DNA of 64,000 nt from a bacterium (GCA_030017475.1 JASEIO010000001.1:13495-77494); one strand, 5' to 3'. Positions 274-59,454 are shown, counted from the stretch's first letter. Made by a program: numbers and translations. The notes: generated by a model not told the origin, from the sequence alone.

Positions 274-1161
274 ATGGAGTATTTGGATGAATTTATGGCA
301 TACTTAGAAATGGAGAGAAATCTTTCTCTGAATACCTTAAGAAGTTACCGTACAGATATCTTACTTTTCCGAAAGTTTTTAGGTTTCATAAATTTTAAAG
401 GAGTTACGCATACATCCCTTAGGAGGTATCTTTCTTATTTACAGAAAGAAGGTTTTGCCAGAACGACAATTGCTCGAAAATTGGCATCCCTTCGTTCATT
501 CTTTAGATTTCTTTGTAGATGGGGTTATGTAGATTCTAATCCAGTAGAGCCCATATCAACACCAAAGTTATCTAAGAGATTACCAGCTTTTCTATATCTG
601 AAAGAGGTTGAAGAACTGATCTCTCTTCCAGATGAGAAAACGGCCTTTGGTTTAAGAGATAAAGCAATCTTAGAGGTTTTGTATTCTTCTGGCGCACGAG
701 TTGAAGAATTGGTAAACTTGAACTTAGAAGATATCGATTTTTTGGGTGGGATGGCTAAGCTCTTAAGAAAGGGTGGAAAAGAGAGAATGGTTCCAATAGG
801 TTCATACGCCCTCCAGGCTTTAGAGAGATACATAGAAAGAAGGGATGAATTCGTTAAACGCGTAAAATCGAACGATGAATCAGCATGTGCCTTGTTTTTG
901 AATAGATGGGGTAAGCGATTATCGAGTAGAGGAGTTAGGATGATAATGGATAGGTATATTAAGAGGCTTTCTTTCAAGAAGCATGTCTCTCCCCATACCT
1001 TACGTCATACATTTGCCACTCATCTTCTGGATAGAGGAGCCGATTTGCGATCAGTGCAGGAATTATTGGGGCATGTCAAATTATCAACTACCCAAATCTA
1101 TACCCATGTTACTAAAGAAGGATTAAAGGAGGTTTATGATCGTACCCATCCAAGGGCATAA
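274..1161 (+). CDS. xerC: tyrosine site-specific recombinase XerC/CodV family
   Basis: 295 aa. N-terminal SAM-like core-binding region; C-terminal catalytic motifs HTLRHTFATHLL ... LLGH ... TTQIYTHV (R-H-R-Y signature). Sits upstream of hslVU as codV does in B. subtilis. Confidence 0.85.
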   Translation: MEYLDEFMAYLEMERNLSLNTLRSYRTDILLFRKFLGFINFKGVTHTSLRRYLSYLQKEGFARTTIARKLASLRSFFRFLCRWGYVDSNPVEPISTPKLSKRLPAFLYLKEVEELISLPDEKTAFGLRDKAILEVLYSSGARVEELVNLNLEDIDFLGGMAKLLRKGGKERMVPIGSYALQALERYIERRDEFVKRVKSNDESACALFLNRWGKRLSSRGVRMIMDRYIKRLSFKKHVSPHTLRHTFATHLLDRGADLRSVQELLGHVKLSTTQIYTHVTKEGLKEVYDRTHPRA

Positions 1162-1191
1162 GGGTTGTTAGTAGACAGAAAGGAGGTATAT

Positions 1192-1785
1192 ATGTATTAT
1201 GAGATAGATAGATATCTTCCAATAGAGGTGTCTACTACTCGCTGTCCACTGTCTACTACCTTTCATGGGACGACTATAGTGGCTGTGAGACATAATGGAC
1301 GGGTGGCTATTGGTGGGGATGGACAGGTGAGTTTCGGCAATGTTGTAATGAAGCATCGGGCAAAAAAGATAAGAAGGATGTATAAAGATCAAGTCTTAGC
1401 TGGTTTTGCAGGAACTGTAGCAGACGCCTTCACCCTGTTTGAGAGGTTTGAAGGGAAGTTAGATGAATTTAAAGGCAACTTACCAAGGGCAGCAGTGGAA
1501 TTGGCTAAAGAATGGAGAACAGATAAATTTTTGAGAAGACTGGAGGCGCTTTTGGCAGTGGTAGATAAGGACCATTCCCTCGTCATTTCAGGGCAAGGAG
1601 AGGTGATTGAACCTGATGATGGAGTTATTGGTATTGGGTCTGGTGGCTCTTTCGGTTTAGCGTCAGCAAGGGCATTAATCAGACATTCAAGATTGTCTGC
1701 TGCCCAAATTGTCAAGATAGCGTTAGAGATAGCCTCTGAGATCTGTGTCTTTACTAATAAGGAAATAACAGTAGAGGAACTTTAA
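1192..1785 (+). CDS. hslV: ATP-dependent protease subunit HslV (ClpQ/CodW)
   Basis: Matches B. subtilis CodW ([44 protein letters not shown] motif). ATG 1192 follows AGGAGG 1181-1186. The catalytic TT is preceded by an unusually long pro-sequence, and the ORF could also start at TTG 1165. Confidence 0.9.
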
Positions 1786-1829
1786 ACCGTTGTTTGTCTG
1801 TTATGGATTGAGACAGGAGGACTGATAAT

Positions 1830-3158
1830 GTGGATGGTTTAACGCCTAAACAGATTGTAAAAGAACTGGATAAGTACATTATTTCGCAGGACGAGGCCAA
1901 AAGGTCAGTGGCTATTGCCTTGAGAAACAGGACCAGGAGGAAGGAATTGCCAGAAGAGTTAAGGGACGAGGTAGCTCCAAAGAATATAATTATGATTGGT
2001 CCAACAGGGGTAGGGAAGACGGAGATTGCTCGAAGATTAGCGCGTCTTGCTAACGCCCCTTTTTTGAAAGTAGAAGCTACAAAGTTTACTGAGGTTGGTT
2101 ATGTGGGACGTGATGTAGAATCAATGATTAGGGATCTGACTAATATTGCGGTAGCTATGATCAAGCAAGAAGAGATTCAAAATGTAGAAGATAAGGCAAA
2201 GGAATTGGCTGAGGAACGTATTTTGGATATATTGTTGCCCGCTCCTCCGCAGAAAGATGTGGAGGATAAAGATCGGTTTATGGCAACCCGTGATAAATTG
2301 AGAAAAAGATTGCAAGAGGGAAGTCTTGAAGATCGATTAGTGGAAATTGAGGTGAAGGAGACCTTTGTTCCAATGATAGAGATATTTTCTACATCGGGAA
2401 TAGAGGGAATGGATTTGGGGTTTTCTGATGTCTTTTCCAATCTCTTTCCACAAAAGAAAAGAAGAAGAAAGGTAAGGATAAGAGAGGCAAGAGGAATATT
2501 ACAAAATGAAGAGGCTAACAAATTGATTGATATGGAGCAAGTGACAAGAAGGGCAATTAAAAAGGTAGAGGATTCAGGGATAATTTTTTTAGATGAGATA
2601 GATAAGATTTGTGGTGGTAATTCCAGCTCTTCGCCAGATGTATCGAGGGAGGGGGTACAAAGGGATATCCTTCCAATTGTTGAAGGTTCAACAGTTAATA
2701 CAAAGTACGGACCAGTTAAAACAGATCATATCTTATTCATTGCCGCAGGAACCTTTCATTCAACTAAACCATCGGATTTGATTCCAGAGTTACAGGGAAG
2801 ATTTCCAATTAGAGTTGAATTGACATCCTTAGGTGAAGAAGAGTTTAAGCGCATTTTAACTGAGCCTCGTAATGCCTTAATTAAACAGTATATAGCTCTT
2901 ATGAAAACAGAGGATGTGGAGTTGAGGTTTGAAGAAGACGCAATTTCGGAAATTGCCTCCATTGCCTGCCAGGTAAATGAACAGACAGAGAATATTGGAG
3001 CAAGGAGATTGCACACAATCCTTGAGAAGGTATTAGAGGAGATTTCTTTTTCGGCACCCGAACTGAAAAATAAAAAAATAAATATTACGGCGGATTATGT
3101 CAAAGAAAGACTTTCAAGGATTACCAAAGATAAAGACTTAAGTAAATACATACTATAA
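1830..3158 (+). CDS. hslU: ATP-dependent protease ATPase subunit HslU (ClpY)
   Basis: 442 aa. Walker [19 protein letters not shown]-terminus [30 protein letters not shown] is typical of HslU. GTG start at 1830 after AGGAGG 1815-1820. Confidence 0.95.
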
Positions 3159-3175
3159 ATTCTATAAATTATAAT

Positions 3176-3203
3176 TTAAGATTTAAATATAAAATGTCGA
3201 TAA
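3176..3203 (+). promoter_or_regulatory. putative sigma-28 (FliA)-type promoter upstream of flgB
   Basis: TTAAGATTT (3176-3184), 11-nt spacer, GTCGATAA (3196-3203). Compare the enteric sigma-28 consensus TAAAGTTT-N11-GCCGATAA. The same architecture recurs upstream of flgD. Confidence 0.4.
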
Positions 3204-3259
3204 ATATAATAAGATAAAGAACAGAAGGAGCTGATTTCTGATTTAATGGGAGGGGGAAG

Positions 3260-3679
3260 ATGTTTAACCACACTCTTTGGGGAAAAACAATAAATATTTT
3301 AGAGAAAGGACTTGATGCTGCCACCCTACGTCATCAAGTAATAGCTGATAATATTTCGAATGTAAATACCCCTGGATTTAAAAGAAAGGGGGTCTTATTT
3401 GAGAAGGAATTAAAAGAGGCACTGACCAGGAGACATAGATTTCAAACCAAAACCACTCATCCAAAACATATAAAGTTTACAAGTAGAGACCCTCAAGATG
3501 TCTTTCCTAAAATATTCACTGAATCTCACACATTTTATAGAAATGATTTAGGTAATGTTGATATAGATATAGAGATGTCTAATTTGGCAAAGAACCAAAT
3601 CATGTACAATGCCTTTGTAGAGAGGATTTCAGGTGGATTTAGACTCTTAAGGACTGTACTTAAGGGAGGAGGGATATAA
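3260..3679 (+). CDS. flgB: flagellar basal-body rod protein FlgB
   Basis: 139 aa. N-terminal rod motif LRHQVIADNISNVNTPGFKRK. First gene of the flagellar cluster; RBS GGGAGGGGG. Confidence 0.9.
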   Translation: MFNHTLWGKTINILEKGLDAATLRHQVIADNISNVNTPGFKRKGVLFEKELKEALTRRHRFQTKTTHPKHIKFTSRDPQDVFPKIFTESHTFYRNDLGNVDIDIEMSNLAKNQIMYNAFVERISGGFRLLRTVLKGGGI

Positions 3680-4120
3680 ATGGGATTATTTGATGCTATT
3701 GATACATCGAGTTCGGGTTTAACTGCTGAGCGCTTAAGGATGGATGTAATTGCCAATAATATTGCTAATGTCAACACAACTCGTACCCCTGAAGGTGGGC
3801 CATACCGAAGACAACAGGTAATCTTTGAGCCAAGAGAATCCCCAAGATTTAGCATTCCATTTGTAGGTAGAGATAGAAAACTCGAACCAGGGAAGGGAGT
3901 TAGGGTTGTGGCTATCCAGGAGGATGAGTCTCCACCTCGATTGGAATATAGGCCAGGTCATCCTGATGCGGATGAGAATGGGTATGTTAGATTGCCAAAT
4001 GTAAATATTGTAGTAGAGATGACAGATATGATTACTGCCACTCGTGCATATGAGGCAAATGTTCAAGTAATAACTTCTGCCAAGGATATGATGATGAGGG
4101 CATTGAGAATTGGTCACTAG
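3680..4120 (+). CDS. flgC: flagellar basal-body rod protein FlgC
   Basis: 146 aa. N-terminus LRMDVIANNIANVNTTRTPEGGPYRRQ and C-terminus EMTDMITATRAYEANVQV are FlgC signatures. Translationally coupled to flgB. Confidence 0.9.
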   Translation: MGLFDAIDTSSSGLTAERLRMDVIANNIANVNTTRTPEGGPYRRQQVIFEPRESPRFSIPFVGRDRKLEPGKGVRVVAIQEDESPPRLEYRPGHPDADENGYVRLPNVNIVVEMTDMITATRAYEANVQVITSAKDMMMRALRIGH

Positions 4121-4556: not shown

Positions 4557-6191
4557 ATGCCGGAGTGGCTTTCACGGTTTGCTGAACAAATAAAAGGGGT
4601 TTGGGGTGGTCTAAATAGAGCTCAGAAGGCGATTTTAATAGGGGTTACAGGGTTTGTTTTTGTAGCCTTAACTGTCCTTATATTTTATGTTTCACGTCCA
4701 GAATGGGTTATTCTATATTCTAGATTAGATCCTGCTGAGGCAGGAAGGATAACTGCAAAATTAGCTGATTGGAAGCAACCTTATAAATTGGAAGAGACAA
4801 CAATCCTTGTGCCAGTGAAAGATAAGGATAGGATTAGATTAAGACTTGCTGCTGAAGAATTGGCTCCTACAGGAGGTATTGTAACCTTTGATATCTTTGA
4901 CAAGATAAAATTAACCACTACTGATTATGAAAGACGGGTTAACTTTTTAAGGGCCTTGCAGGGAGAGTTAACCCGGACAATTGAGTCAATTGAGCCTATA
5001 GAGAGTGCGAGGGTTATGATTGTTATGCCCGAGAAAAAACTCTATTTAGAGGAGGAAGAACCGGTTACTGCCTCTATTAAGCTTAAACTGAAACCTTATG
5101 CCCAGCTTACCTCAGGACAGGTCAAAGGGATTGTTAATCTGGCTGCTTCAGCGGTTGAAGGACTTACCCCTGAGAATGTAACTGTGGTAGATAATAAAGG
5201 AAATATCCTTTCTGATTTAATTAAACAGGAAGGTGAGATGACAACCTTGACTGCTAACCAGCTTGAATTACAGAAAGGAGAGGGAAAGGTATTAGAAAGA
5301 AAGATTCGTCATACATTAGGACAGGTACTTGGCCAAGATAAGGTGGAGGCAATTGTTAAATGTGAGATGGATTTTGATCGTGTGGAATCAAGGGCAGAGA
5401 GGTATTCAATGCCTGGATTTGAACAATTAAAGGTCTCCGAGGAGAAGGTCGATGAGCATTTTGAAGGCAAAGGGGCTACCCCTGGTGGTCCACCAGGTGT
5501 TGAGGCAAATATACCTGGGTATAAGGGAGTGGAAAAGGTAGGTCCAATGCAATATGATAAGAAGGAGGAAAGAATCAATTACCTTGCCGATAAAGAGGAT
5601 ATTGTAAGGATTCGTTCTCCTTATGTCTCAAGAATATCCGTAGCAGTATTCATTGATGGGAGTTATGAAAGGGATAAGGAAGGGAAATTGAAACTGGATG
5701 AGGAAGGAAAACCTATTTATATTCCAAGGACTAAAGAGGAGATGCAAACCTTTGAAGAGTTAGTCTGGGCTGCTATTGGGTCAGAAAAAGGGAAGACGTA
5801 TAAAGATAGGGAGTATATTGTTAAGGTTAAGAATGTCCAATTTGACCGGACTGAAGAGTGGGCTCAAGAACTGGAGGAAAAAAGGATAGTTGCGCAAAGG
5901 CGAATATTAAGCTTAGCTATTATAGGGGCATTGGTCTTTTTAGTAGGTATTGTAGCTTTAGTTAGATGGCAAGCAAGGAAAAAAAGAGAGAGGCTTGAAG
6001 AGGAGGCAAGAAGGAGGGAATTAGAAAGAGAAGCAGCTCTACGTGCAGTAGAAGAGGAGGAATTGGTGAAGTTGCCACCAGAGGAAAGAGAAAGGATAGA
6101 ATTGCAGCAAAGGACTGAGAGGATAGCTAAGGAGAAGCCAGAATTAGTAGCAGATTTAGTAAGAACCTGGATGGCAGAGGTACCAGAATAG
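4557..6191 (+). CDS. fliF: flagellar MS-ring protein FliF
   Basis: 544 aa. N-terminal TM helix, periplasmic RBM domains and a second TM helix near the C-terminus (LAIIGALVFLVGIVALV); charged C-terminal tail for FliG binding. Position follows fliE. Confidence 0.9.
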   Translation: MPEWLSRFAEQIKGVWGGLNRAQKAILIGVTGFVFVALTVLIFYVSRPEWVILYSRLDPAEAGRITAKLADWKQPYKLEETTILVPVKDKDRIRLRLAAEELAPTGGIVTFDIFDKIKLTTTDYERRVNFLRALQGELTRTIESIEPIESARVMIVMPEKKLYLEEEEPVTASIKLKLKPYAQLTSGQVKGIVNLAASAVEGLTPENVTVVDNKGNILSDLIKQEGEMTTLTANQLELQKGEGKVLERKIRHTLGQVLGQDKVEAIVKCEMDFDRVESRAERYSMPGFEQLKVSEEKVDEHFEGKGATPGGPPGVEANIPGYKGVEKVGPMQYDKKEERINYLADKEDIVRIRSPYVSRISVAVFIDGSYERDKEGKLKLDEEGKPIYIPRTKEEMQTFEELVWAAIGSEKGKTYKDREYIVKVKNVQFDRTEEWAQELEEKRIVAQRRILSLAIIGALVFLVGIVALVRWQARKKRERLEEEARRRELEREAALRAVEEEELVKLPPEERERIELQQRTERIAKEKPELVADLVRTWMAEVPE

Positions 6192-42693: not shown

Positions 42694-44474
<1,781 letters not shown>

Positions 44475-44476
<2 letters not shown>

Positions 44477-44547
44477 GCCGTTAGCTCAGTTGGTAGAGCA
44501 CCGGCCTTTTAAGCCGGGTGTCGCTGGTTCGATTCCAGCACGGCTCA
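44475..44547 (+). tRNA. tRNA-Lys (anticodon TTT)
   Basis: Cloverleaf: acceptor GAGCCGT/ACGGCTC, D arm GCTC-AGTTGGTA-GAGC, anticodon arm CCGGC-CTTTTAA-GCCGG, T arm GCTGG-TTCGATT-CCAGC. Overlaps the purA stop. CCA not encoded. Confidence 0.85.
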
Positions 44548-44609
44548 TAACCCTTTATGGCTAGAAACCTCCATTGAAATCTTCCTGTTTCCAACAAAGA
44601 AAGAGGACA

Positions 44610-44684
44610 GCCCACATAGCTCAGAAGGTCAGAGTGCATCCTTGGTAAGGATGAGGTCACCGGTTCGATTCCGGTTGTGGGCTT
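44610..44684 (+). tRNA. tRNA-Thr (anticodon GGT)
   Basis: Acceptor GCCCACA/TGTGGGC plus discriminator T, anticodon arm CATCC-TTGGTAA-GGATG, T arm ACCGG-TTCGATT-CCGGT. Confidence 0.8.
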
Positions 44685-49475: not shown

Positions 49476-50342
49476 ATGGATGAGGTAAAGATAGGGATTA
49501 TCGGTGGGAGTGGATTATATAAAATGGAAGGTTTGAAGGAGATTAAGCTACTCAAAGTATCTACACCTTTTGGTTCGCCTTCGGATGAGATAGTTATTGG
49601 AGAGATAGAAGGAGAAAGGATTGCTTTTTTACCAAGACATGGAAGAGGTCATCGGGTGCTCCCAGGAGAAGTAAACTCCCTTGCTAATATATATGCCTTA
49701 AAAAGTTTAGGTGTTGAAAGAATAATTGGAGTATCAGCTGTTGGGAGTTTAAAAGGGGAATTACGGCCTTTAGATATAGTTATTCCTGATCAACTGTTTG
49801 ATCATACAAAAGGCAGACCTCATACCTTTTTTGGGAATGGAATAGTTGTCCATATTGAATTTGCTGATCCTTACTGCCCTGATTTAAATAAATTTTTGAT
49901 AGAAATATGTATAACTTTAGGTTATAGAGTACATTCTAAAGGGGTATATGTTTGCATTGAAGGTCCACAGTTCTCTACCCGCGCAGAATCGCAAGTATTT
50001 AGAAGACTTGGAATGGATATAATTGGGATGACTAACATGCCAGAGGCAAAGCTTGCTCGAGAGGCAGAAATTTGTTATTCCACAATCGCTATAGTTACAG
50101 ACTATGACGTTTGGCATGCTAAATCAAGTGATGTAACAGTAGATTTGGTAATTAAAAATTTATTGGAGGGTGTTAAAAAGGCGAAAGAGATAATAAAGAT
50201 GCTTGTTCCACTTGTTCGAAATAAAAAAAGGGAGTGTAAATGTGCTACCGCTTTGAAAGATGCTATAATTACGAATCCTAAACTAATTTCTGAGGAGAGA
50301 AAGAGGCAACTTAATTTGATAATTGGAAGATACATTAAATAA
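49476..50342 (+). CDS. mtnP: S-methyl-5'-thioadenosine phosphorylase
   Basis: 288 aa PNP/MTAP family (IGIIGGSGLY, GMTNMPEAKLAREAEICYSTIA). Confidence 0.85.
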   Translation: MDEVKIGIIGGSGLYKMEGLKEIKLLKVSTPFGSPSDEIVIGEIEGERIAFLPRHGRGHRVLPGEVNSLANIYALKSLGVERIIGVSAVGSLKGELRPLDIVIPDQLFDHTKGRPHTFFGNGIVVHIEFADPYCPDLNKFLIEICITLGYRVHSKGVYVCIEGPQFSTRAESQVFRRLGMDIIGMTNMPEAKLAREAEICYSTIAIVTDYDVWHAKSSDVTVDLVIKNLLEGVKKAKEIIKMLVPLVRNKKRECKCATALKDAIITNPKLISEERKRQLNLIIGRYIK

Positions 50343-50394
50343 TCCTTTTCTTTTAAAAAAGAAAAAGCGACACAAAAAGAACACTGGCCAGAAG

Positions 50395-51420
50395 ATGTTG
50401 ATTCGAGAAAGGTTTGAGCAATTTGAGAAAGAGACCTTGTCTCCCTTTGCCACTTTATCCTCTCGCTCGAAAGGAAGAAGATACGAGGAGGAAGAGTGTA
50501 TTATTAGAACCTGTTTTCAGAGAGATAGAGATAGGATTGTTCATTCTAAATCCTTCCGTCAATTAAAACACAAAACCCAGGTCTTTTTGATTCCAATAAA
50601 AGAGTCTATTCGTACCCGTCTTACACACACCATTGAAGTTTCCCAGATTGCTAGGACAATTGCCAAGGCATTACTGCTAAATGAAGATTTAACAGAGGCT
50701 ATCTCTTTAGGCCATGATTTAGGACATCCTCCATTTGGACATATAGGAGAAGTTGCCTTGAATGGAATATATAAGAATGGCTTTAAGCATTCAGAACAAT
50801 CGCTACGTATTGTGGAAATTTTGGAAAAGGAAGGACAGGGTTTAAACTTGACCTATGAGGTAAAGGATGGGATTTTAAAGCACTCTCGTGGATCCCAAAG
50901 TCTATTTATTGATGAAGGAAGATCTATGACCTTAGAAGGTGATATAGTTAGATTAGCAGATTCAATTGCCTATATAAATCATGATATTGAAGATGCGATA
51001 AATGCTGGAATTATTGAAATGAAGGATCTCCCAAGGGAAGCAATCCGAGTCTTGGGAGAGAGATCATCCGAGCGTATTGATCGAATGGTTAAAGATGTAA
51101 TTGAAACAAGCTATGGGAAAGATGTAATATCAATGAGTAGAGAAATCATGGATTTTACAGATGAATTGAGGAATTATCTTTATAGCTGCGTTTATACAAG
51201 AAATGAAATTCAAAAAGAGGCCCAGAAAGCAAGAAGGGTTTTAGAGGAGCTATTCAACTATTTTTGCAAAAATCCCGAAGAGGTTTTGGAGAGTTTACCT
51301 TTTCTTTCGCCTGAAGAGGGAATAGATCGAATAATCTGTGACTACTTGGCAGGGATGAGTGATCAGGAGGCATTGTTGAGGTATGAGGAGATATTTTTGC
51401 CAAGGCCAGGGGTATTTTAA
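50395..51420 (+). CDS. HD-domain dGTP triphosphohydrolase-like protein
   Basis: About 341 aa. HD motifs RLTHTIEVSQIAR and HDLGHPPFGH (dGTPase-like family). ATG 50395 chosen; the ORF track's upstream extension overlaps mtnP. Confidence 0.8.
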   Translation: MLIRERFEQFEKETLSPFATLSSRSKGRRYEEEECIIRTCFQRDRDRIVHSKSFRQLKHKTQVFLIPIKESIRTRLTHTIEVSQIARTIAKALLLNEDLTEAISLGHDLGHPPFGHIGEVALNGIYKNGFKHSEQSLRIVEILEKEGQGLNLTYEVKDGILKHSRGSQSLFIDEGRSMTLEGDIVRLADSIAYINHDIEDAINAGIIEMKDLPREAIRVLGERSSERIDRMVKDVIETSYGKDVISMSREIMDFTDELRNYLYSCVYTRNEIQKEAQKARRVLEELFNYFCKNPEEVLESLPFLSPEEGIDRIICDYLAGMSDQEALLRYEEIFLPRPGVF

Positions 51421-51430
51421 AGTAATAATT

Positions 51431-51535
51431 ACAAAAATTGTTACAAGAATTATTGGATGACAAATTTTGTAATTGCGATTGACAATTATTGTCAAACCAG
51501 GACAAGAGAGGTTTGGTAGTGAGTACAAGATTTGT
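51431..51535 (+). promoter_or_regulatory. array of four ACAA-N3-TTGT inverted-repeat operator-like sites upstream of the STAND-TPR gene
   Basis: ACAAaaaTTGT (51431-41), ACAAattTTGT (51460-70), TTGACAATtATTGTCAA (51479-95, perfect 8-bp arms) and ACAAgatTTGT (51525-35, overlapping the gene start). Confidence 0.4.
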
Positions 51536-51546
51536 TAGGTTTTATA

Positions 51547-53733
51547 ATGATAGGGATTTTTCTCGTTATCGTAGTAATTGCACCTATCCTTTACTTTATC
51601 TTTAGCTATAGAAAGAAGGATGAAAGAGGGAAGGTTTCTACGGATTTACCACTTCCATTTAGAATCTCATCCCTTGGTTCTGAGCCTATTTTGGATCCGC
51701 CCAATTTTATAGGAAGGGAGGATGAGCTTTTTAAATTAAAAGAAAACCTTAGGTACAAAAGTGTAATAATCATTAAGGGTAAAGAAGGGGTTGGAAAGAC
51801 AAGTTTAGGCGCAAAATTTTGCAAGGAGCTCTCTTCAGATTATTCGACCTTTTGGTATACAGCCTGTGAAGATACAGATATTGAAGGTATATTTCTAAAA
51901 CTTAATCAATTTCTTGAGCAAAAAGGGGATAGATTTTTTTCCCAAATCTTTATTCTCCCCGAAATAGAAATAAAGGGTAAAATTGATTTGTTAATAAAGA
52001 GGTTAGAAAAGAAAAGATATATTTTATTTATTGATAATTACCATTTGATAATGGATAATAGGGTATTTCATATGATAGATCGTTTTTCTAAGGAACTAAA
52101 TGTTTCCAAGGTAGTTATAATTACTTCAGAAAAGCTTACCTTAGCCCAGGACAAAATTTTTGAGTTGGAACTTCAGGGGTTTAATCTGAATGATTCAATC
52201 CTATTTTTAAAAACTTGCGGGTTAGAAAAAGGCGATTTAGAAAAGATATCTAACAAGTTTCAAGGTAATCCTTTAGCCTTAAAGTTAATAGCCTCGGAAA
52301 AAGACGCAAGGTCAGTTTTTGATGAGGTAAGCGGAAGAAATATTAGAGATATAATAGATATAAGATATAATAGGTTAAATGAAGACGAGAGGAATTTAAT
52401 CTCAAGGTTATCTGTATTTAATGAAGAGGTGCCATTTGAGGCTTGCAAATATCTGTATAAAAGGACAAATTTGCTTAAGATTATAAAAGATCTGGAATCT
52501 TTGGCTTTAATCACTGAACATAATGGAAATTATTCATTACATTCAGAAATAAGAGACCTTTGTTATGAGAAACTTTTTCAAAAAGAAAGATATCATAAAG
52601 CAGCAGCGAAATATTACGGAGATGCGAATGCGGCTTTAAAGGAAAAAAGAATGGAGGCAGTTCTTGAAGAATCTCACCATTATTTTAAAGCAGAGGATTA
52701 TTCTTCTTCATTAGATCTTTTAATCTCTAATTTAAACCAAATGGTTTTAGGTGGGTATTCGTCTCTTCTTTATGCCCGGTTACTAAAATTTAAGAGGAGT
52801 AACCTTACAGACAAAGAGTGGTTAAAAGTTTCTCAAGCCAAAGGCGAGATTAATAATTTCCGGGGGTTTTTTGATGAGGCTATTTCAAATTTTACTGAGA
52901 TGTTACGGATAGCAGAAAATGGTAAATCAAGAAACGACCTTTCTCTTTCATATCATGGGCTGGGAAGTGCTTACCGTTTAAAGGGCGATTTGAATCAAGC
53001 CATTTCTTATTATGAAAGGAGTCTGCGTGTTTTTGAAGAAGAGGAGCCTATTAAACGAGAAAGTCCTGTCTATAGACAGAGTTTTGGTTCAGTTTATAAA
53101 GGTAGAGGAAGATGGGATGAGGGAATAAGGTACTACATTGGTTATCGTAAACGCGATTTTGATCTGCACGAGGAAAGTAATATAATTGCTATAATTTATG
53201 CAGACTTGGGGCTGATTTATCTTAAAAAGGGAGAGTTTGAGCAGGCGATTTCATGTTTTGAGAAAGGATTGGATTTTTCTTTAAAAGAGGAGGATTTAAT
53301 AGGTAAGGTAATAAGTATTACAGATTTAGGTGTTGCCTATCATCTAATGGAGGAATATGATAGGGCTATATCTTATTATGAGGAGAGTTTATCTTTATGG
53401 AAAGAAATAGGGAATGTAAATAGAACTGGCTCTATTTATAATAACCTGGGAACTATTTATCAGAATAAAAGAGAGATGGAGCAGGCAATCAAAAATTTTG
53501 AAAATAGTTTGGAGATATGGAGAAGAATTGGAAATTTATTCGAAGAAGCAGAAGTTTTAAGATCCCTTGGCGCAATTTACGAAAAGATAGGGGATTATCT
53601 CAAGGCAATCGATTATTACAAGAAAAGTATTGAGATATTTGAAAATATTGGAAGAGAAGATGAACTTCCATCTCTTTATGAAAAGATAAATATAGCCACT
53701 GAGATATTGGAGAAGGAAAGGAAGAAGGGATAA
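51547..53733 (+). CDS. membrane-anchored STAND/NB-ARC-type NTPase with C-terminal TPR repeats
   Basis: N-terminal TM helix IGIFLVIVVIAPILYFIF. P-loop GKEGVGKTSL with hhhhD Walker B ILFIDNYH. At least five TPR units (LGSAYRLKGDLNQAISYYERSL, LGLIYLKKGEFEQAISCFEKGL, LGVAYHLMEEYDRAISYYEESL, LGTIYQNKREMEQAIKNFENSL, LGAIYEKIGDYLKAIDYYKKSI). The ORF track starts at TTG 51532. Confidence 0.7.
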   Translation: MIGIFLVIVVIAPILYFIFSYRKKDERGKVSTDLPLPFRISSLGSEPILDPPNFIGREDELFKLKENLRYKSVIIIKGKEGVGKTSLGAKFCKELSSDYSTFWYTACEDTDIEGIFLKLNQFLEQKGDRFFSQIFILPEIEIKGKIDLLIKRLEKKRYILFIDNYHLIMDNRVFHMIDRFSKELNVSKVVIITSEKLTLAQDKIFELELQGFNLNDSILFLKTCGLEKGDLEKISNKFQGNPLALKLIASEKDARSVFDEVSGRNIRDIIDIRYNRLNEDERNLISRLSVFNEEVPFEACKYLYKRTNLLKIIKDLESLALITEHNGNYSLHSEIRDLCYEKLFQKERYHKAAAKYYGDANAALKEKRMEAVLEESHHYFKAEDYSSSLDLLISNLNQMVLGGYSSLLYARLLKFKRSNLTDKEWLKVSQAKGEINNFRGFFDEAISNFTEMLRIAENGKSRNDLSLSYHGLGSAYRLKGDLNQAISYYERSLRVFEEEEPIKRESPVYRQSFGSVYKGRGRWDEGIRYYIGYRKRDFDLHEESNIIAIIYADLGLIYLKKGEFEQAISCFEKGLDFSLKEEDLIGKVISITDLGVAYHLMEEYDRAISYYEESLSLWKEIGNVNRTGSIYNNLGTIYQNKREMEQAIKNFENSLEIWRRIGNLFEEAEVLRSLGAIYEKIGDYLKAIDYYKKSIEIFENIGREDELPSLYEKINIATEILEKERKKG

Positions 53734-53775
53734 TTTTTCTTGACGCAATCTGTTTATAAAAGGAGGCTAAGAAAG

Positions 53776-55536
53776 ATGGTTTATGATCCAACGAAACTCA
53801 AGGATTGGCAGATTGCTGAAGAGGCAGAAAAGAATATGCCAACACCTTCGGAGTGGAGAGAAAGGTTAGGACTTGAAAGGGATGAAATCATTCCTTATGG
53901 AAGGATATGCAAGCTCGATTTTCTAAAGATTATTGAGCGGTTAAAAGACCGGCCCGACGGCAAATATATAGATGTTACTGCTATTACCCCAACCCCTTTT
54001 GGTGAGGGAAAGACTACAACTACTATTGGCTTGATAGAAGGCTTAGGTAAAAGGGGTAAGAATGTAGGTGGCTGCATACGCCAACCCTCTGGTGGTCCTA
54101 CTATGAATATCAAGGGTACAGCTGCAGGCGGTGGTAATGCCCTGCTCATTCCAATGACTGAGTTTTCTTTAGGATTAACCGGTGATATTGATGCCATTAC
54201 CAATGCGCACAATTTGGCTATGGTAGCTTTGACCGCAAGACTTCAGCATGAGGCAAACTATTCAGATGAAGAACTTGCAAAACGTAACCTGAAACGACTA
54301 AACATTGATCCAAGAAGGGTAGAGATGGGTTGGGTACTTGACCTCTGTGCCCAAGCCTTACGCAACATCATTATCGGTATTGGTGGTAAGATGGATGGTT
54401 TCATGATGGAGTCAAGTTTTGGTATTACAGTCAGTTCTGAGCTTATGGCCATTCTTTCTATTGTTCGAGATTTAAAGGATTTGCGGGAGCGTTTGGGTAA
54501 GATCATAGTAGCTTATGACAAGAAGGGGAAGCCCATAACTACTTCTGATTTAGAAGTCGCTGGTGCTATGTGTGCCTGGATGAGAAATACAATCAATCCC
54601 ACATTGATATCGACAGTGGAGTATCAACCATGTATGGTCCATGCAGGTCCATTTGCAAATATTGCCGTTGGTCAGTCATCCATCATAGGGGATCGCATTG
54701 GTTTGAAGATATTCGACTACCACGTAACAGAGAGTGGATTCGGCGCAGATATAGGTTTTGAGAAATTCTGGAATGTGAAATGTCGCTTTAGTGGACTCGT
54801 TCCCAATGCTGTTGTAATCGTTGCTACAATAAGGGCATTGAAGATGCACGGCGGAGGACCCGAGGTAGTGCCTGGCAGACCTCTTCCGCAGGAATACCAG
54901 GAAAAGAATTTGGGGTTGATTGATAAAGGGGTTTTGAATCTCCTGCATCACATAAATAATGTGAAGAAATCAGGGGCTAAACCTGTTGTTTGTATCAATT
55001 GTTTCCCTACGGATACCGACGAAGAGATTGCTTTGGTTTGTAAGTATGTTGAGGAGACAGGAACTCGATGTGTACTCTCCAAGCACTGGCTTGAAGGTGG
55101 AGAGGGTGCCCTTGAACTGGCAGATGCAGTCATTGATGCATGTAACGAAGAGGTTGATTTTAAATACCTCTATCCATTGGAGATGCCGCTTCGGGAGAGA
55201 GTCGATCTGATTGCAAAAGAGATATATGGTGCAGATGGAGTCTCTTGGACACCTGAGGCAGAGGCAAAGGCCAAGGAGTTAGAGAGAAATCCTACGATGC
55301 AGGACTTCTCTACAATGATGGTCAAGACTCACTTAAGCCTTACCCATGACCCGACAATAAAAGGAACACCCAAGGGCTGGATTCTGCCAATACGTGATGT
55401 CTTAGTATTTGCAGGTGCAAAGTTCCTCTGCCCTTGTGCAGGTACTATCAAACTGATGCCAGGAACGGGTTCTGACCCAGCATTCAGAAGGGTGGATGTG
55501 GATGTGGATACAGGGAAGGTTACAGGTCTTTTCTGA
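53776..55536 (+). CDS. fhs: formate--tetrahydrofolate ligase
   Basis: About 586 aa. FTHFS motifs [15 protein letters not shown] and [16 protein letters not shown] 53776 follows AGGAGG. Confidence 0.9.
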
Positions 55537-55550
55537 GAAAGCTCTGGGCA

Positions 55551-57398
55551 ATGGATTCCAAAATTTGTCAAGAGATGAGGTATACTGTTCATTTTTATCC
55601 TGATGATGTGAAGGTAGTTGTCTATGCGGGAACTACTGTACTTCAAGCAGCAATTGATGCATCAATTTATATCCCCTCTTCCTGTGGTGGAGAAGGTCTC
55701 TGTGGAAGATGTAAAATAATTATTGATAAACAAGAGGTTTTAGCCTGCAGGACTCAGGTAGATACCGATTTAGAAGTAAGAATCCCTCCCGTTTTAGATA
55801 GAAAGAGATTGGCTAAAAAAAGGGTTGTCTTACCTATAAAAAAACAAGGGCTAAATCCCATTACCAAGAAATTATACCTCGAGCTTCCTTTCCCAAAACC
55901 TGGGGATAATATAGATGACCTTTATAGGTTAATCCAGGGGATTAAAAAAGAATGCGGTATTTCCCCCTCTATTGAATTTCCAATAATTCAAAAACTTTCC
56001 AAAACCCTTAGAGAGGAAAGGTTTAAGGTTACTGTTAGTTTGCTTGATGTAAATGAGAAGCCTACTATTGTAAATGTAGAACCAGGAGATACAAGATCTA
56101 ATCACTATTCAATAGCCTTAGATATTGGTACTACTTCCATCTATGCTCAATTGTTAGATTTAGAGGAAGGTAAGGTGTTGGCTGAAACCTCCTGTTTTAA
56201 TCCTCAAATCGTTTGTGGAGAAGATATTATTTCAAGGATTGTGTATTCTTTAAAACCAGGGAATTTAAAGAGGTTACAAGAGTTAGTGGTAAAAGCCATA
56301 AATGAAATAGTGGAGGATTTAACTCATGTTGCCAAAATTGAGAAGTCAGATATTAATCAAATAGTAGTAGCTGGAAATACCACTATGATTCATCTATTAT
56401 TGGGGATAGATCCAAGGTATATTAGAGAATCCCCTTATACCCCAACCTGTAATTTTATTCCTCCTGTCAGGGCGAAGGAGATAGGGATAGATCTTCCTCC
56501 TTATGCCTATATCTACATCATACCTTCAATAGCGAGTTTCATAGGAGGGGATATCACCTCAGGGATTTTAGCCTCAAAGTTATACGAAACGCAAGAACTT
56601 TCCCTTTATATCGATATTGGAACAAATGGAGAGATAGTTTTGGGGAATAGAGAGATGCTCGTAGCATGTTCTTGTTCTGCTGGTCCTGCCTTTGAAGGTG
56701 GAGGAGTAAGTTGCGGTACATTTGCTACCTTTGGAGCAATTGAGAGGGTAAGAATTGATAGGGATTATGAGCCAGAGATAGAGACTATTGGAGGAGTAAA
56801 ACCAAAAGGCATCTGTGGATCTGGATTGATTGATACCTTGGCAGAACTTTTAATGAATAAAATCATTTCTCAAAATGGTAAGTTTAATGAGGATCTGAAA
56901 ACAAAAAGGGTGAGGAAAAAGGAAGGTGGTTTTGAATACGTAATCTGTTGGAAGGATGAAAATGACTTAGACCATGATATTGTTTTGACTGAAGTAGATA
57001 TTGATAATTTGATGAGAGCAAAGGCAGCAATTTATGCTGGGATCTCTTTATTGCTTGAAAAGCTTGAATTAACCCTTTCGGATATTTCAAAGATTATAAT
57101 TTCAGGAAATTTTGGACAATATATTGATCTAAGAAATGCCCATATAATTGGGTTATTTCCAGAGGTATCCCTTGATAGATTTGAATATATTGGAAATGGC
57201 TCACTTTTAGGGGCAAGATTATGCTCCTTTTCTAAAGATATGCTGAATCAGACAAGGGAGATAGCGAATTCTGTTACCAATATAGAGCTGTCGGATAATC
57301 CACGGTTTTATGACGAGTATCTACAGGCATTATTTTTACCACATACCAATATGGAGGAATTTCCAGGAGTCAGCGAAAAACTAAAAAAGAGGGCATAA
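55551..57398 (+). CDS. reductive activator of corrinoid Fe-S protein (RACo-like: 2Fe-2S ferredoxin domain plus ASKHA ATPase domain)
   Basis: 615 aa. N-terminal plant-type ferredoxin fold with CGGEGLCGRCK ... C. C-terminal actin-like ATPase (DIGTTS, DIGTNGE, GSGL). Sits within the fhs/folD/acsC/acsE cluster. Confidence 0.7.
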   Translation: MDSKICQEMRYTVHFYPDDVKVVVYAGTTVLQAAIDASIYIPSSCGGEGLCGRCKIIIDKQEVLACRTQVDTDLEVRIPPVLDRKRLAKKRVVLPIKKQGLNPITKKLYLELPFPKPGDNIDDLYRLIQGIKKECGISPSIEFPIIQKLSKTLREERFKVTVSLLDVNEKPTIVNVEPGDTRSNHYSIALDIGTTSIYAQLLDLEEGKVLAETSCFNPQIVCGEDIISRIVYSLKPGNLKRLQELVVKAINEIVEDLTHVAKIEKSDINQIVVAGNTTMIHLLLGIDPRYIRESPYTPTCNFIPPVRAKEIGIDLPPYAYIYIIPSIASFIGGDITSGILASKLYETQELSLYIDIGTNGEIVLGNREMLVACSCSAGPAFEGGGVSCGTFATFGAIERVRIDRDYEPEIETIGGVKPKGICGSGLIDTLAELLMNKIISQNGKFNEDLKTKRVRKKEGGFEYVICWKDENDLDHDIVLTEVDIDNLMRAKAAIYAGISLLLEKLELTLSDISKIIISGNFGQYIDLRNAHIIGLFPEVSLDRFEYIGNGSLLGARLCSFSKDMLNQTREIANSVTNIELSDNPRFYDEYLQALFLPHTNMEEFPGVSEKLKKRA

Positions 57399-58276
57399 TG
57401 GGTGCAAAAATTATAAGTGGCGAGGAAATCTCTGAGGAGATTAGGAAAGGGTTGCGAGAGGAGATTAACAGGCTAAAAGAAAGAGGAGTGGTTCCAGGAC
57501 TTGCCACTCTCCTTGTTGGGGAAGATCCAGCTTCCCAGGTTTATGTTAGATCGAAAAGACGAGCTTGTGAGAAAGTTGGTATTCATACAGAACAGTATAC
57601 CTTTCCTGCTACGATTAAAGAAAAAGAGTTGTTAGGTAAGATTTCAGAACTTAACGAGAGGCATGACATAAATGGAATCTTGGTTCAACTTCCACTGCCT
57701 CCACAAATTGATTCTAATAGGGTCCTACTGTCTATTTCACCTGATAAGGATGTGGATGGATTTCATCCTATAAATGTAGGGAGGTATATGAGTATGAAAT
57801 ATTTCGATCAAATGATTGAGGAGGAATTATTCCTTCCATGTACTCCTCATGGGATTATTGAGATATTGAAAAGGACAGGTGTAGAATTAAAAGGGGCGGA
57901 GGCTGTAGTTGTAGGTCGGTCAAATATTGTAGGAAAACCAGTAGCATTGTTATTACTTGCCAATAATGCCACAGTAACTGTTTGCCATACTGGTACTAAA
58001 GATCTCGGAGAGGTCTGTAGAAGAGCTGATGTATTAATTGCTGCTATTGGCAGACCAAAGTTTATTCGAGGGGAGATGGTAAAGCAGGGTGCTGTGGTTA
58101 TTGATGTAGGAGTGAATAGAACCGAAGAAGGTTTGGTTGGTGATGTTTCGTTCCTGGAAGTTAAGGAAAAGGCATCCGCTATTACACCAGTTCCAGGTGG
58201 AGTGGGTCCAATGACTGTTACAATGCTTTTGGTAAATACAGTAAAGGCAGCTAAAAGACAGGAGAGTGGTGGGTAA
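57398..58276 (+). CDS. folD: bifunctional methylene-THF dehydrogenase / methenyl-THF cyclohydrolase
   Basis: 292 aa. GKPVALLL NAD(P)-binding motif; PVPGGVGPMT cyclohydrolase motif. Confidence 0.9.
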   Translation: MGAKIISGEEISEEIRKGLREEINRLKERGVVPGLATLLVGEDPASQVYVRSKRRACEKVGIHTEQYTFPATIKEKELLGKISELNERHDINGILVQLPLPPQIDSNRVLLSISPDKDVDGFHPINVGRYMSMKYFDQMIEEELFLPCTPHGIIEILKRTGVELKGAEAVVVGRSNIVGKPVALLLLANNATVTVCHTGTKDLGEVCRRADVLIAAIGRPKFIRGEMVKQGAVVIDVGVNRTEEGLVGDVSFLEVKEKASAITPVPGGVGPMTVTMLLVNTVKAAKRQESGG

Positions 58277-59454
58277 TGGAAGAGATTATGAGGGAAGAAG
58301 AGTTTTATAAAGATGCAGTTAAACCTATTAGAGAAGGAGAGATAATCGAGGGTGTAGTGGTCAAGATAGATCCAGAATGTATATTTGTTGATATTGGGTG
58401 TAAATCTGAAGGGATTGTACCTTTAAATGAATCAGGTGGAAAAAGAAAAGATATAAAGGTGGGAGATAGGATTTCGGTGTTTGTATTAAAGACAGAAGAT
58501 AGGGTAGTCCTTTCTAAAAAAAGGGCAGATTTAGAAAAAAGCTGGAGTATGGTAGAGCGTGCTTTTGAAACAGGTGAGATAATTGAGGCACGTGTTTTAA
58601 AGGTAGTAAAAGGTGGTTTATTAATTTCGCTTGGTTCTATCTTCGGTTTTTTACCTGCAGCACATTTGGAAAAGGGATTTGTCAAGGATCTTAAAAGGTA
58701 TGTAAATAAGTTATTAAGATTAAAGGTCTTGGAAGTAAACCGAAGACAGAATAGGGTTATTCTTTCACAAAAGGTAGTTTTGGAAGAGGAAGATAGGAAA
58801 AGAAAGGAGGCTTTATTAGATAGCTTAAGCGAGGGAGAGATTCGAAAAGGTAGTGTTTCAGGTATTACCTCTTTTGGTGTTTTTGTTGATTTAGGTGGGA
58901 TTGATGGCTTGGTTAGGAAGACGGAGTTATCATATAATAAGGTAAATCATCCAAAGGAGGTTATATCCAAAGGAGCGGAGGTGGATGTAAAGGTATTAAA
59001 ATTTAATCGTAAAGAAGGGAAGATATCTTTATCTATAAAACAAGCCTTGCCTGACCCTTGGGATTCAGTGGATAAGAAGTTTTCATTAGGGCAGATAGTT
59101 AAAGGAAAAGTGGTCAATATGACTAAAGCATGTGTATTTGTGGAACTTGAACCTGGAATCGATGGCTTGATCCCTTTGCGTGAGTTAGGGAAAAAAGGCA
59201 TAGGTTCCCCCCGTGATGTAGTAAAGATTGGGGATGAGGTAAGTGCTAAAATTTTAGAGATAGTTAAAGAGTCAAAAAGGATCATTTTAAGTATTCGTAG
59301 AATCTTTGATGATGAGGAAAGAAATGATATTAGTCGCTACCTTAATGCCCAAAAGAGGGAAAGACTTACATTGGGTGAAATAATTAAAGAGAAATTGGAG
59401 AATAGTGGGAAGAAGATAATACAGGAGGCGGTTAATGGGGTTAACCGGGATTGA
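58276..59454 (+). CDS. S1 RNA-binding domain protein (short four-S1-repeat ribosomal protein S1 homologue)
   Basis: 392 aa with four tandem S1 domains (G.VV.I....F.D.G..EG..P...). Size and layout resemble the roughly 380-aa S1 homologue of Firmicutes. Confidence 0.75.
   Translation: MEEIMREEEFYKDAVKPIREGEIIEGVVVKIDPECIFVDIGCKSEGIVPLNESGGKRKDIKVGDRISVFVLKTEDRVVLSKKRADLEKSWSMVERAFETGEIIEARVLKVVKGGLLISLGSIFGFLPAAHLEKGFVKDLKRYVNKLLRLKVLEVNRRQNRVILSQKVVLEEEDRKRKEALLDSLSEGEIRKGSVSGITSFGVFVDLGGIDGLVRKTELSYNKVNHPKEVISKGAEVDVKVLKFNRKEGKISLSIKQALPDPWDSVDKKFSLGQIVKGKVVNMTKACVFVELEPGIDGLIPLRELGKKGIGSPRDVVKIGDEVSAKILEIVKESKRIILSIRRIFDDEERNDISRYLNAQKRERLTLGEIIKEKLENSGKKIIQEAVNGVNRD

Follow-up and report, generated by a model that had tools for sequence, protein, structure and literature searches.

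What does a cluster of near-identical dyads do in front of the gene for a membrane-anchored STAND-TPR NTPase? The window (the whole stretch of bacterial DNA analyzed here, 64,000 nt) contains an intergenic gap of 126 nt, between the end of a dGTP triphosphohydrolase (dGTPase) gene at 51420 and the STAND gene, and this gap holds four exact ACAA-N3-TTGT dyads. A preliminary description of the locus took them for an array of operator sites, bound cooperatively by a repressor whose gene is not adjacent. The reading favored here stays close to that one: the dyads probably, though we would not put it more strongly, are the operators of a dimeric regulator that is encoded outside the window and represses the STAND gene. 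Such an array is an ordinary, conventional object, since clustered dyad operators count among the most familiar elements of promoters in bacteria. The coordinates of the sites and of the genes beside them are collected in Table 1.

TABLE 1 Genes, sites, and spacers of the array region and their counterparts in the orthologous locus L001
Feature	Position	Strand	Remarks
dGTP triphosphohydrolase gene	50323-51420	+	Annotated product of 341 aa, which puts the real start near 50395
48-nt block with sites 1, 1b, and 2	51427-51474		47/48 identical to L001 123-170
Site 1, ACAAAAATTGT (extended, TTACAAAAATTGTTA)	51431-51441		Exact dyad; L001 127-137, identical
Site 1b, ACAAGAATTAT	51443-51453		Degenerate, 1 mismatch, a single base after site 1; L001 139-149, identical
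Site 2, ACAAATTTTGT (extended, TGACAAATTTTGTAA)	51460-51470		Exact dyad; L001 156-166, identical
Site 3, TTGACAATTATTGTCAA	51479-51495		Perfect 17-bp palindrome, core at 51482-92; L001 182-198, 17/17 identical
Site 4, ACAAGATTTGT	51525-51535		11 nt 5' of the ATG at 51547; L001 216-226, 10/11 identical
Spacer, site 2 to site 3	Window versus L001		17% identity; 7 nt longer in L001
Spacer, site 3 to site 4	Window versus L001		34% identity; 12 nt shorter in L001
Site 4 to ATG	Window versus L001		27% identity
STAND (NB-ARC/ATPase_2) + TPR gene	51547-53733	+	728 aa, one N-terminal hydrophobic helix (domains from Pfam)
fhs (formate-THF ligase), first Wood-Ljungdahl gene	53776-55536	+	Strong ribosome-binding site, AAGGAGG

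The STAND gene and its neighbors

The STAND gene is the presumed target of the array. Pfam recognizes NB-ARC, ATPase_2, and TPR domains in its product, and with the N-terminal hydrophobic helix these bear out the earlier picture of a membrane-anchored STAND-TPR NTPase; the closest solved relative is the TPR sensor PH0952 (PDB 6mfv). The accompanying suggestion that a partner of the STAND protein may lie elsewhere found nothing in its support. When the STAND and dGTPase proteins were searched against anti-phage systems, only a generic TPR match was returned. The gene has a GC content of 0.34, compared to 0.37 to 0.40 for its neighbors, and occupies a slot of variable content that is bounded by argJ and fhs. 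A distant homologue, P0011 (L360 730-3432), aligns at 22% identity over 94% coverage. At the N terminus, the position of the membrane helix of the window protein is taken in P0011 by an HTH_VMAP-M9 domain, an exchange that looks like an effector-domain swap within the STAND-TPR family, and there are no dyads upstream of the P0011 gene.

Where does the STAND gene begin? Site 4 had been described as overlapping the first codons, a view that rested on a TTG start. The orthologue excludes this start: in L001 an in-frame TAA lies three codons upstream of the ATG, so that no earlier start is possible there, and both the NCBI product (P0001, 728 aa, from a metagenome-assembled genome and identical to the window protein) and the orthologue P0002 begin at the ATG equivalent to 51547. 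Site 4 thus lies upstream of the gene, where it covers the position at which a ribosome-binding site would be expected. The Shine-Dalgarno sequence of the gene is weak or absent, with a four-base match at best, and a survey of the window found one in 42 of 57 genes.

The genes upstream are argC, argJ, an MtnA-like isomerase gene, a nucleoside phosphorylase gene, and the dGTPase gene. The dGTPase passes the cutoff of the housekeeping model (494 versus 393 bits), and its relatives (62 to 67% identity) have other neighbors and no dyads. Downstream, 42 nt beyond the STAND stop codon, begins a Wood-Ljungdahl cluster made up of fhs, RACo, folD, a gene for an S1-domain protein, acsD/cdhD, and a gene for a pterin-binding protein. 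The S1-domain gene (58276-59454), between folD and acsD/cdhD, encodes a 392-aa protein with four S1 RNA-binding domains that resembles ribosomal protein S1, and it is missing from the equivalent position in the related loci L247 and L248.

Elsewhere the window carries xerC, hslVU, a flagellar cluster, tig, clpPX, serA, leuCD, purA, and pilM (62923), with nearly all genes on one strand and a GC skew that is strongly positive throughout. Several details of this wider region may be recorded here. The order xerC-hslV-hslU-flgB-flgC (274-4120) matches the Bacillus order codV-clpQ-clpY...fla/che, with no codY in between. The FlgE open reading frame (ORF) at 12576-17060 is unusually long (1,494 aa), and the D1, D2, and C-terminal rod domains are found only at its ends, which implies a very large insertion. 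Genes for tRNA-Lys(TTT) and tRNA-Thr(GGT) occupy 44474-44684, just 5' of a PASTA-domain gene; the mechanically called start of that gene, at 44677, overlaps the tRNA, and its real start must therefore be later.

Five sites of one geometry

An exact scan of the window placed the four dyads and the perfect palindrome at the positions given in the preliminary description. All sites, the degenerate site 1b included, are self-palindromic and share one 4+3+4 geometry, as a dimer bound to DNA would lead one to expect. Taking the window and L001 together, the half-site consensus is T-[G/T/A]-ACAA-[A/T] (T-D-ACAA-W), with ACAA in 16 of 16 half-sites and the T at -2 in 15 of 16; the full site of 15 bp reads T-D-ACAA-N3-TTGT-H-A. 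Site 2, taken with its AATT flank, also makes an inverted repeat with site 1 (I11, 51427-41 and 51460-74, 93% complementary).

Could such a cluster arise by chance in AT-rich DNA? The exact dyad ACAANNNTTGT occurs five times in the 64-kb window, four times within the 105 bp of the array and once in a gene at 4800, while dinucleotide-preserving shuffles of the window predict 1.07 dyads and never hold more than 3. At the local scale, 20,000 dinucleotide-preserving shuffles of a 120-nt region, which retain its 30% GC, its ACAA/TTGT content, and its dinucleotides, gave two dyads or fewer each and never four. About 70 kb of DNA from related genomes contains a single distinct dyad, present in two near-identical loci. 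With so few dyads in the shuffles and in the DNA of relatives, the cluster is not an artifact of AT richness. The array exceeds the expectation from composition, as the preliminary description had proposed to check, and it is genuine and nonrandom. Dyads with one mismatch number 55 in the window, compared to 34 expected. Outside the array, the sequence of the window that fits the site model best is GATTCCAAAATTTGTCAAG, with one core mismatch, at 55558-55568; it falls in codons 3 to 6 of RACo, directly after fhs, and may be there by chance.

One part of the earlier picture has to be given up. The sites had been called regularly spaced, but their centers are 12, 17, 22, and 43 nt apart in the window and 12, 17, 29, and 31 nt apart in L001, so that the spacing is neither regular nor conserved. 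Most of the distances between sites deviate from an integral number of helical turns by no more than about a quarter turn.

Conservation in the orthologous locus

A search of 5.8 billion proteins for close homologues of the STAND protein returned two matches, the identical P0001 and P0002, which is 79% identical. P0002 is encoded at the only orthologous locus, L001, a contig of 2.5 kb that carries the same dGTPase 3' end upstream of its array. Between the dGTPase stop codon and the array, L001 has an extra stretch of about 85 nt (40-122) that the window does not have; it is built of direct repeats (aaagtaatacattaa twice and atagtata twice).

Whether the dyads would be kept in orthologous promoters had been posed as a check at the outset, and all of them are kept in L001, at 91 to 100% identity. 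The spacers between dyads are only 17 to 34% identical and have changed in length, and those on both sides of site 3 differ in sequence as well as length. By comparison, the STAND coding sequences of the two loci are 84% identical, so the 48-nt block (47/48) is more conserved than the coding sequence. Conserved dyads set among drifting spacers are a clear phylogenetic footprint, though one with n = 2 loci, as L001 is the sole orthologue. In the 48-nt block conservation runs throughout, and that of the dyads there is inseparable from that of the block as a whole. The shifts in spacing (from 22 nt in the window to 29 nt in L001, and from 43 nt to 31 nt) argue against a rigid cooperative assembly.

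A possible promoter

Site 3 contains a TTGACA -35-like hexamer on both strands, and it had been proposed to supply the -35 element of the STAND promoter. In L001 the hexamer is followed by a matching -10, TTGACA-16-AATTAT (10/12 match, with the -10 hexamer at 204-209). Assuming the usual gap of about 7 nt, this -10 would put the transcription start of L001 at about site 4. In the window, nothing at 16 to 18 nt from the TTGACA of site 3 would pass as a -10. The sole match of a promoter scan there is ATGACA-18-GACAAT (9/12), which is broken in L001 by a 7-nt insertion. The proposal therefore holds for the hexamer and for its -10 in L001 but finds no good -10 in the window, and site 3 may plausibly, though not securely, be taken for a -35 element. 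Because the window has no acceptable -10 and the promoter itself is uncertain, it is also uncertain that the array represses rather than activates. The organism does use canonical sigma-70 promoters, for example, TTGACA-17-TATAAT with an extended -10 at pilM.

A scan for terminator-like sites detected none after the dGTPase gene, so read-through from that gene into the array region is possible.

The search for a regulator

That no regulator gene is adjacent to the array, as the preliminary description stated, agrees with what was found: the only transcription factor among the scanned ORFs of the window is FliA (sigma-28). Pfam was run on most ORFs, a few flagellar ORFs at 21.4 to 27.1 kb excepted, and the small ORFs in gaps, read by eye, include no obvious DNA-binding protein. 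Candidates for a hidden regulator were discarded. A 28-codon GTG ORF at 51519 is not conserved or has a junk-like composition, and the two antisense ORFs over the array (51254-51528) look noncoding by the same signs.

A regulon was sought as well. In a scan of 185,579 genomes for three dyads, the matches listed were for the most part repeats, either CRISPR-like or dispersed (Bacteroidales, Parabeggiatoa); none of the listed matches formed a regulon. With no regulator found, the binding of a protein to these sites is something we infer entirely from the DNA, as are repression and the location of the promoter.

The array and the Wood-Ljungdahl operon

With a Wood-Ljungdahl cluster just beyond the STAND gene, might the array be the promoter of that operon? 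This candidate was rejected. Four fhs loci, at 86 to 88% identity, have plain sigma-70 promoters and zero dyads; the fhs promoter of L246, for instance, is TTGACA-17-TATAAT. Since it is absent upstream of the relatives' fhs, the array by this comparison belongs to the STAND gene and not to the Wood-Ljungdahl operon. In L247 the gene order is argC-argJ-[variable]-fhs-folD-cdhD.

What has become of the fhs promoter in the window? At 53734-53775, fhs keeps a TTGACG where the relatives have their promoter (L247 4770-4860, L248 90-185), and the -10 at the proper spacing is gone (TTGACG-9 nt-TATAAA). Neither a terminator nor a complete promoter lies between the STAND gene and fhs. The fhs gene may consequently depend on read-through from the STAND gene, and occupancy of the array may also modulate Wood-Ljungdahl read-through.

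The same dyad in other genomes

A metagenome scan for one core dyad within 5 to 35 nt of TTGACAA-N3-TTGTCAA returned 115 loci, many of them on GC-rich contigs, with start-to-start spacings that peak at 20 to 21 and 40 to 41 nt. Fifteen are type IV pilin loci with TGACAA-N3-TTGTCA dyads (L140, L141/L213, L154/L220/L234, L172, L187, L196, L206, L218, L219, and L236 among them, on contigs of 41 to 67% GC). At 13 of the 15, the proximal dyad lies 95 to 121 nt upstream of a canonical sigma-54 promoter, TGGCA[CT]-N5-[TC]TGC. The dyad pairs at pilin loci, (T)TGACAA-N3-TTGTCA(A), are about 2, 3, or 4 helical turns apart (20 to 23, 33 to 34, and 43 nt), and in four representative sequences they are adjoined by NtrC-type response regulators (receiver plus sigma-54 activation plus HTH_8 domains). 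This pair looks like a widespread PilR-type enhancer motif. The hallmark of Pseudomonas aeruginosa PilR, TGT-N11-AGA plus GTCT (quoted in PMC6058289), is a different motif. Papers on PilR give no consensus that matches the dyad, and the searched literature contains no description of the array dyad or of the pilin-enhancer dyad.

Other loci bring other proteins. At seven (L129, L145, L157, L164, L202, L227, and L232), a TetR-family gene of 192 aa stands immediately downstream of two TTGACAA-N3-TTGTCAA palindromes 36 nt apart, a pair that is probably an autoregulated operator. A further six loci have a Rep-like winged-helix gene. On viral contigs, three-dyad arrays with a period of 21 to 22 nt are found at various places, some of them ahead of genes for the small subunit of terminase. 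Examples are L290, L318, L324, L343, and L354, together with a gut-phage group (L251, L254, L256, L268, L273, and others), in which gtgACAAaaaTTGTcaac or gtACAA-N3-TTGTac arrays (exact period of 22 nt) adjoin genes for the terminase small or large subunit or other head proteins; these arrays may be packaging (pac) or late-operon control sites. The neighbors of the low-GC metagenomic loci with multiple dyads included no informative families. In public data, then, the same dyad is found with at least three to four unrelated classes of DNA-binding protein, and because unrelated proteins share it, the motif cannot assign the regulator to a family; the earlier suggestion of an XRE-, GntR-, or TetR-type dimer accordingly stays a guess.

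Comparison with known systems

The operators OR1 to OR3 of phage 434 are 14-bp sites of the form ACAA-N6-TTGT. The array is like them in having several short dyads with ACAA/TTGT arms and variable centers, clustered over a promoter region and varying in their match to the consensus, with one perfect. It differs in that the arms are 3 nt apart in all five sites, not 6, and the geometry of a bound dimer must for that reason differ as well. Unlike phage 434, the locus has no adjoining repressor gene and no divergent promoter, and its context is chromosomal and metabolic rather than a prophage.

The upstream sites of PilR/NtrC-controlled, sigma-54-dependent pilin genes have the same extended dyad, and the 22- and 43-nt spacings of the window fit their pattern. 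However, the window has no sigma-54 promoter, pilin gene, or enhancer-binding-protein gene beside these sites, and its five sites reach toward the start codon. A sigma-54 enhancer at the STAND locus was rejected for lack of a -24/-12 element. No GG-N10-GC occurs from the array down to the ATG, in the 130 nt with which the gene begins, or in L001, and 51493-51546 has no GC dinucleotide at all. Proteins with Sigma54_activat or HTH_8 domains are absent from the scanned ORFs of the window, and the GFTLIE pilin motif is absent from the window as a whole.

At the TetR loci (L145, L157, L202, L227, and others), as at the STAND locus, dyads overlap TTGACA directly upstream of the presumed target gene. 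Those loci, however, have two sites and an adjacent gene that itself encodes a TetR-family regulator, whereas the window has five sites and a downstream gene that does not encode a regulator. What about Fur? The Fur-family 7-1-7 box is TGATAAT-N-ATTATCA, and overlapping arrays of Fur boxes occur. Site 3, TGACAAT-T-ATTGTCA, shares the 7-1-7 layout with one difference per half-site, but that difference is a T-to-C change in the conserved TAAT core, and sites 1, 2, and 4 fit poorly. No fur-family gene is present in the window or among the most frequent neighbor families of the related dyad pairs.

How might the array act?

In the operator reading that we favor, one dimeric, sequence-specific DNA-binding protein would occupy all five sites. 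At site 3 it would sit over the TTGACA -35-like hexamer; at site 4 it would cover the translation-initiation region, at the transcription start or immediately past it. The upstream sites 1, 1b, and 2 would help by adding cooperative binding or looping, and the net effect would be repression of the STAND-TPR gene.

The main rival places the function in RNA. The intergenic region would be transcribed, either from a promoter farther upstream or by polymerases that read through from the dGTPase gene, and the dyads in the transcript might fold so as to hide the weak ribosome-binding region and the AUG of the STAND gene, or might serve in processing or stability. We regard this as unlikely but worth weighing. 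The predicted fold is far more stable than that of shuffles (window, -31.8 kcal/mol with z = -4.7; L001, -30.2 kcal/mol with z = -4.1), yet palindromes with identical arms are always mutually complementary, which makes a low energy automatic. In the window the fold pairs site 2 with site 4 and 51449-55 with 51545-51, the AUG included, but in L001 the best fold pairs site 1 with site 2. The predicted pairs survive the two substitutions within sites, T to C after site 1 and G to A in site 4; across the two sequences, however, the changes in the dyads are one-sided, with no two-sided compensatory change. The little or no Shine-Dalgarno sequence of the STAND gene, set against 42 of 57 genes that have one, and the lack of a terminator after the dGTPase gene both suit an RNA element. 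On the other hand, helices have no need of self-palindromic arms with a constant 4+3+4 geometry, Rfam 15 has no match at an E value of ≤1 over 51200-51800, and elsewhere the same dyad lies in enhancer DNA that is clearly untranscribed. A second departure from the favored reading keeps the DNA sites but reverses their sign: a trans-encoded activator, possibly an enhancer-binding protein of the PilR/NtrC type, would recruit RNA polymerase to a weak promoter. This, too, we hold to be unlikely. Promoters that depend on an activator often have no good -10, as in the window; the TTGACAA-N3-TTGTCAA-type pairs ahead of sigma-54 promoters at 13 of 15 pilin loci, the NtrC-type regulators next to four representatives, and the type IV pilus genes of the organism itself (pilM) point the same way. 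Against an activator, no -24/-12 element occurs in the window, in L001, or 95 to 121 nt downstream inside the gene, the window has no gene for an activator or enhancer-binding protein, and a site on the -35 hexamer with another in the start region is an arrangement typical of repression.

In one further reading the dyads have no part in transcription: a protein of replication, packaging, partition, or recombination would bind them, or they would be left over from the mobile DNA on which the STAND gene arrived. This we judge improbable. Arrays of the same core dyad adjoin Rep-like winged-helix genes and precede phage terminase small-subunit genes, and the STAND gene is rare, slightly low in GC, and located in the variable argJ-fhs slot; still, no integrase, transposase, Rep, or terminase gene is nearby, the 3' gene boundary has no matching repeat, and the intergenic DNA gave chance-level matches only against phage and plasmid records. 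The array also lies exactly between one stop codon and the next start codon and is intact across the level of divergence seen in the gene (84% nucleotide identity). Least probable of all, and by our estimate barely credible, is autoregulation, in which the STAND protein would be a transcription factor tethered to the membrane and would contact the dyads with the winged-helix portion of the nucleotide-binding module. The STAND proteins MalT and AfsR are transcription factors, no other regulator is found near the array, array and gene occur together in both genomes, and the distant homologue P0011 has the N-terminal HTH_VMAP-M9 domain. But no DNA-binding domain was detected in the STAND protein, its membrane helix stands where P0011 has the HTH, and P0011, as mentioned, has no dyads upstream; moreover, STAND modules are not known to read DNA with their winged helix.

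What the array may mean for the organism

How far could control by the array extend? In the most far-reaching form, a trans-acting, signal-responsive regulator, perhaps a PilR-like protein of the kind that would read this dyad at pilin enhancers, would use the array to turn a membrane-anchored STAND-TPR sensor on or off, with read-through that reaches the whole Wood-Ljungdahl operon. The loss of a promoter of its own by fhs is the reason that such a switch would also act on that operon. We think it quite improbable that all of this holds together. Were it true, carbon fixation would be tied to a surface or envelope signal in an uncultured lineage.

The operator reading promises less and is the more conventional. 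With a motif common to several unrelated DNA-binding families, no new mechanism is revealed by sequence alone. If the reading is right, the locus offers an experimentally usable cis-element with five sites, one of them a perfect 17-bp palindrome, and the value of the array is then as bait: a scan with the consensus or a pull-down should identify the regulator together with its regulon. The element would govern an orphan STAND ATPase that is anchored in the membrane of an unclassified and uncultured bacterium, and perhaps also the genes of the acetyl-CoA pathway that lie behind it.
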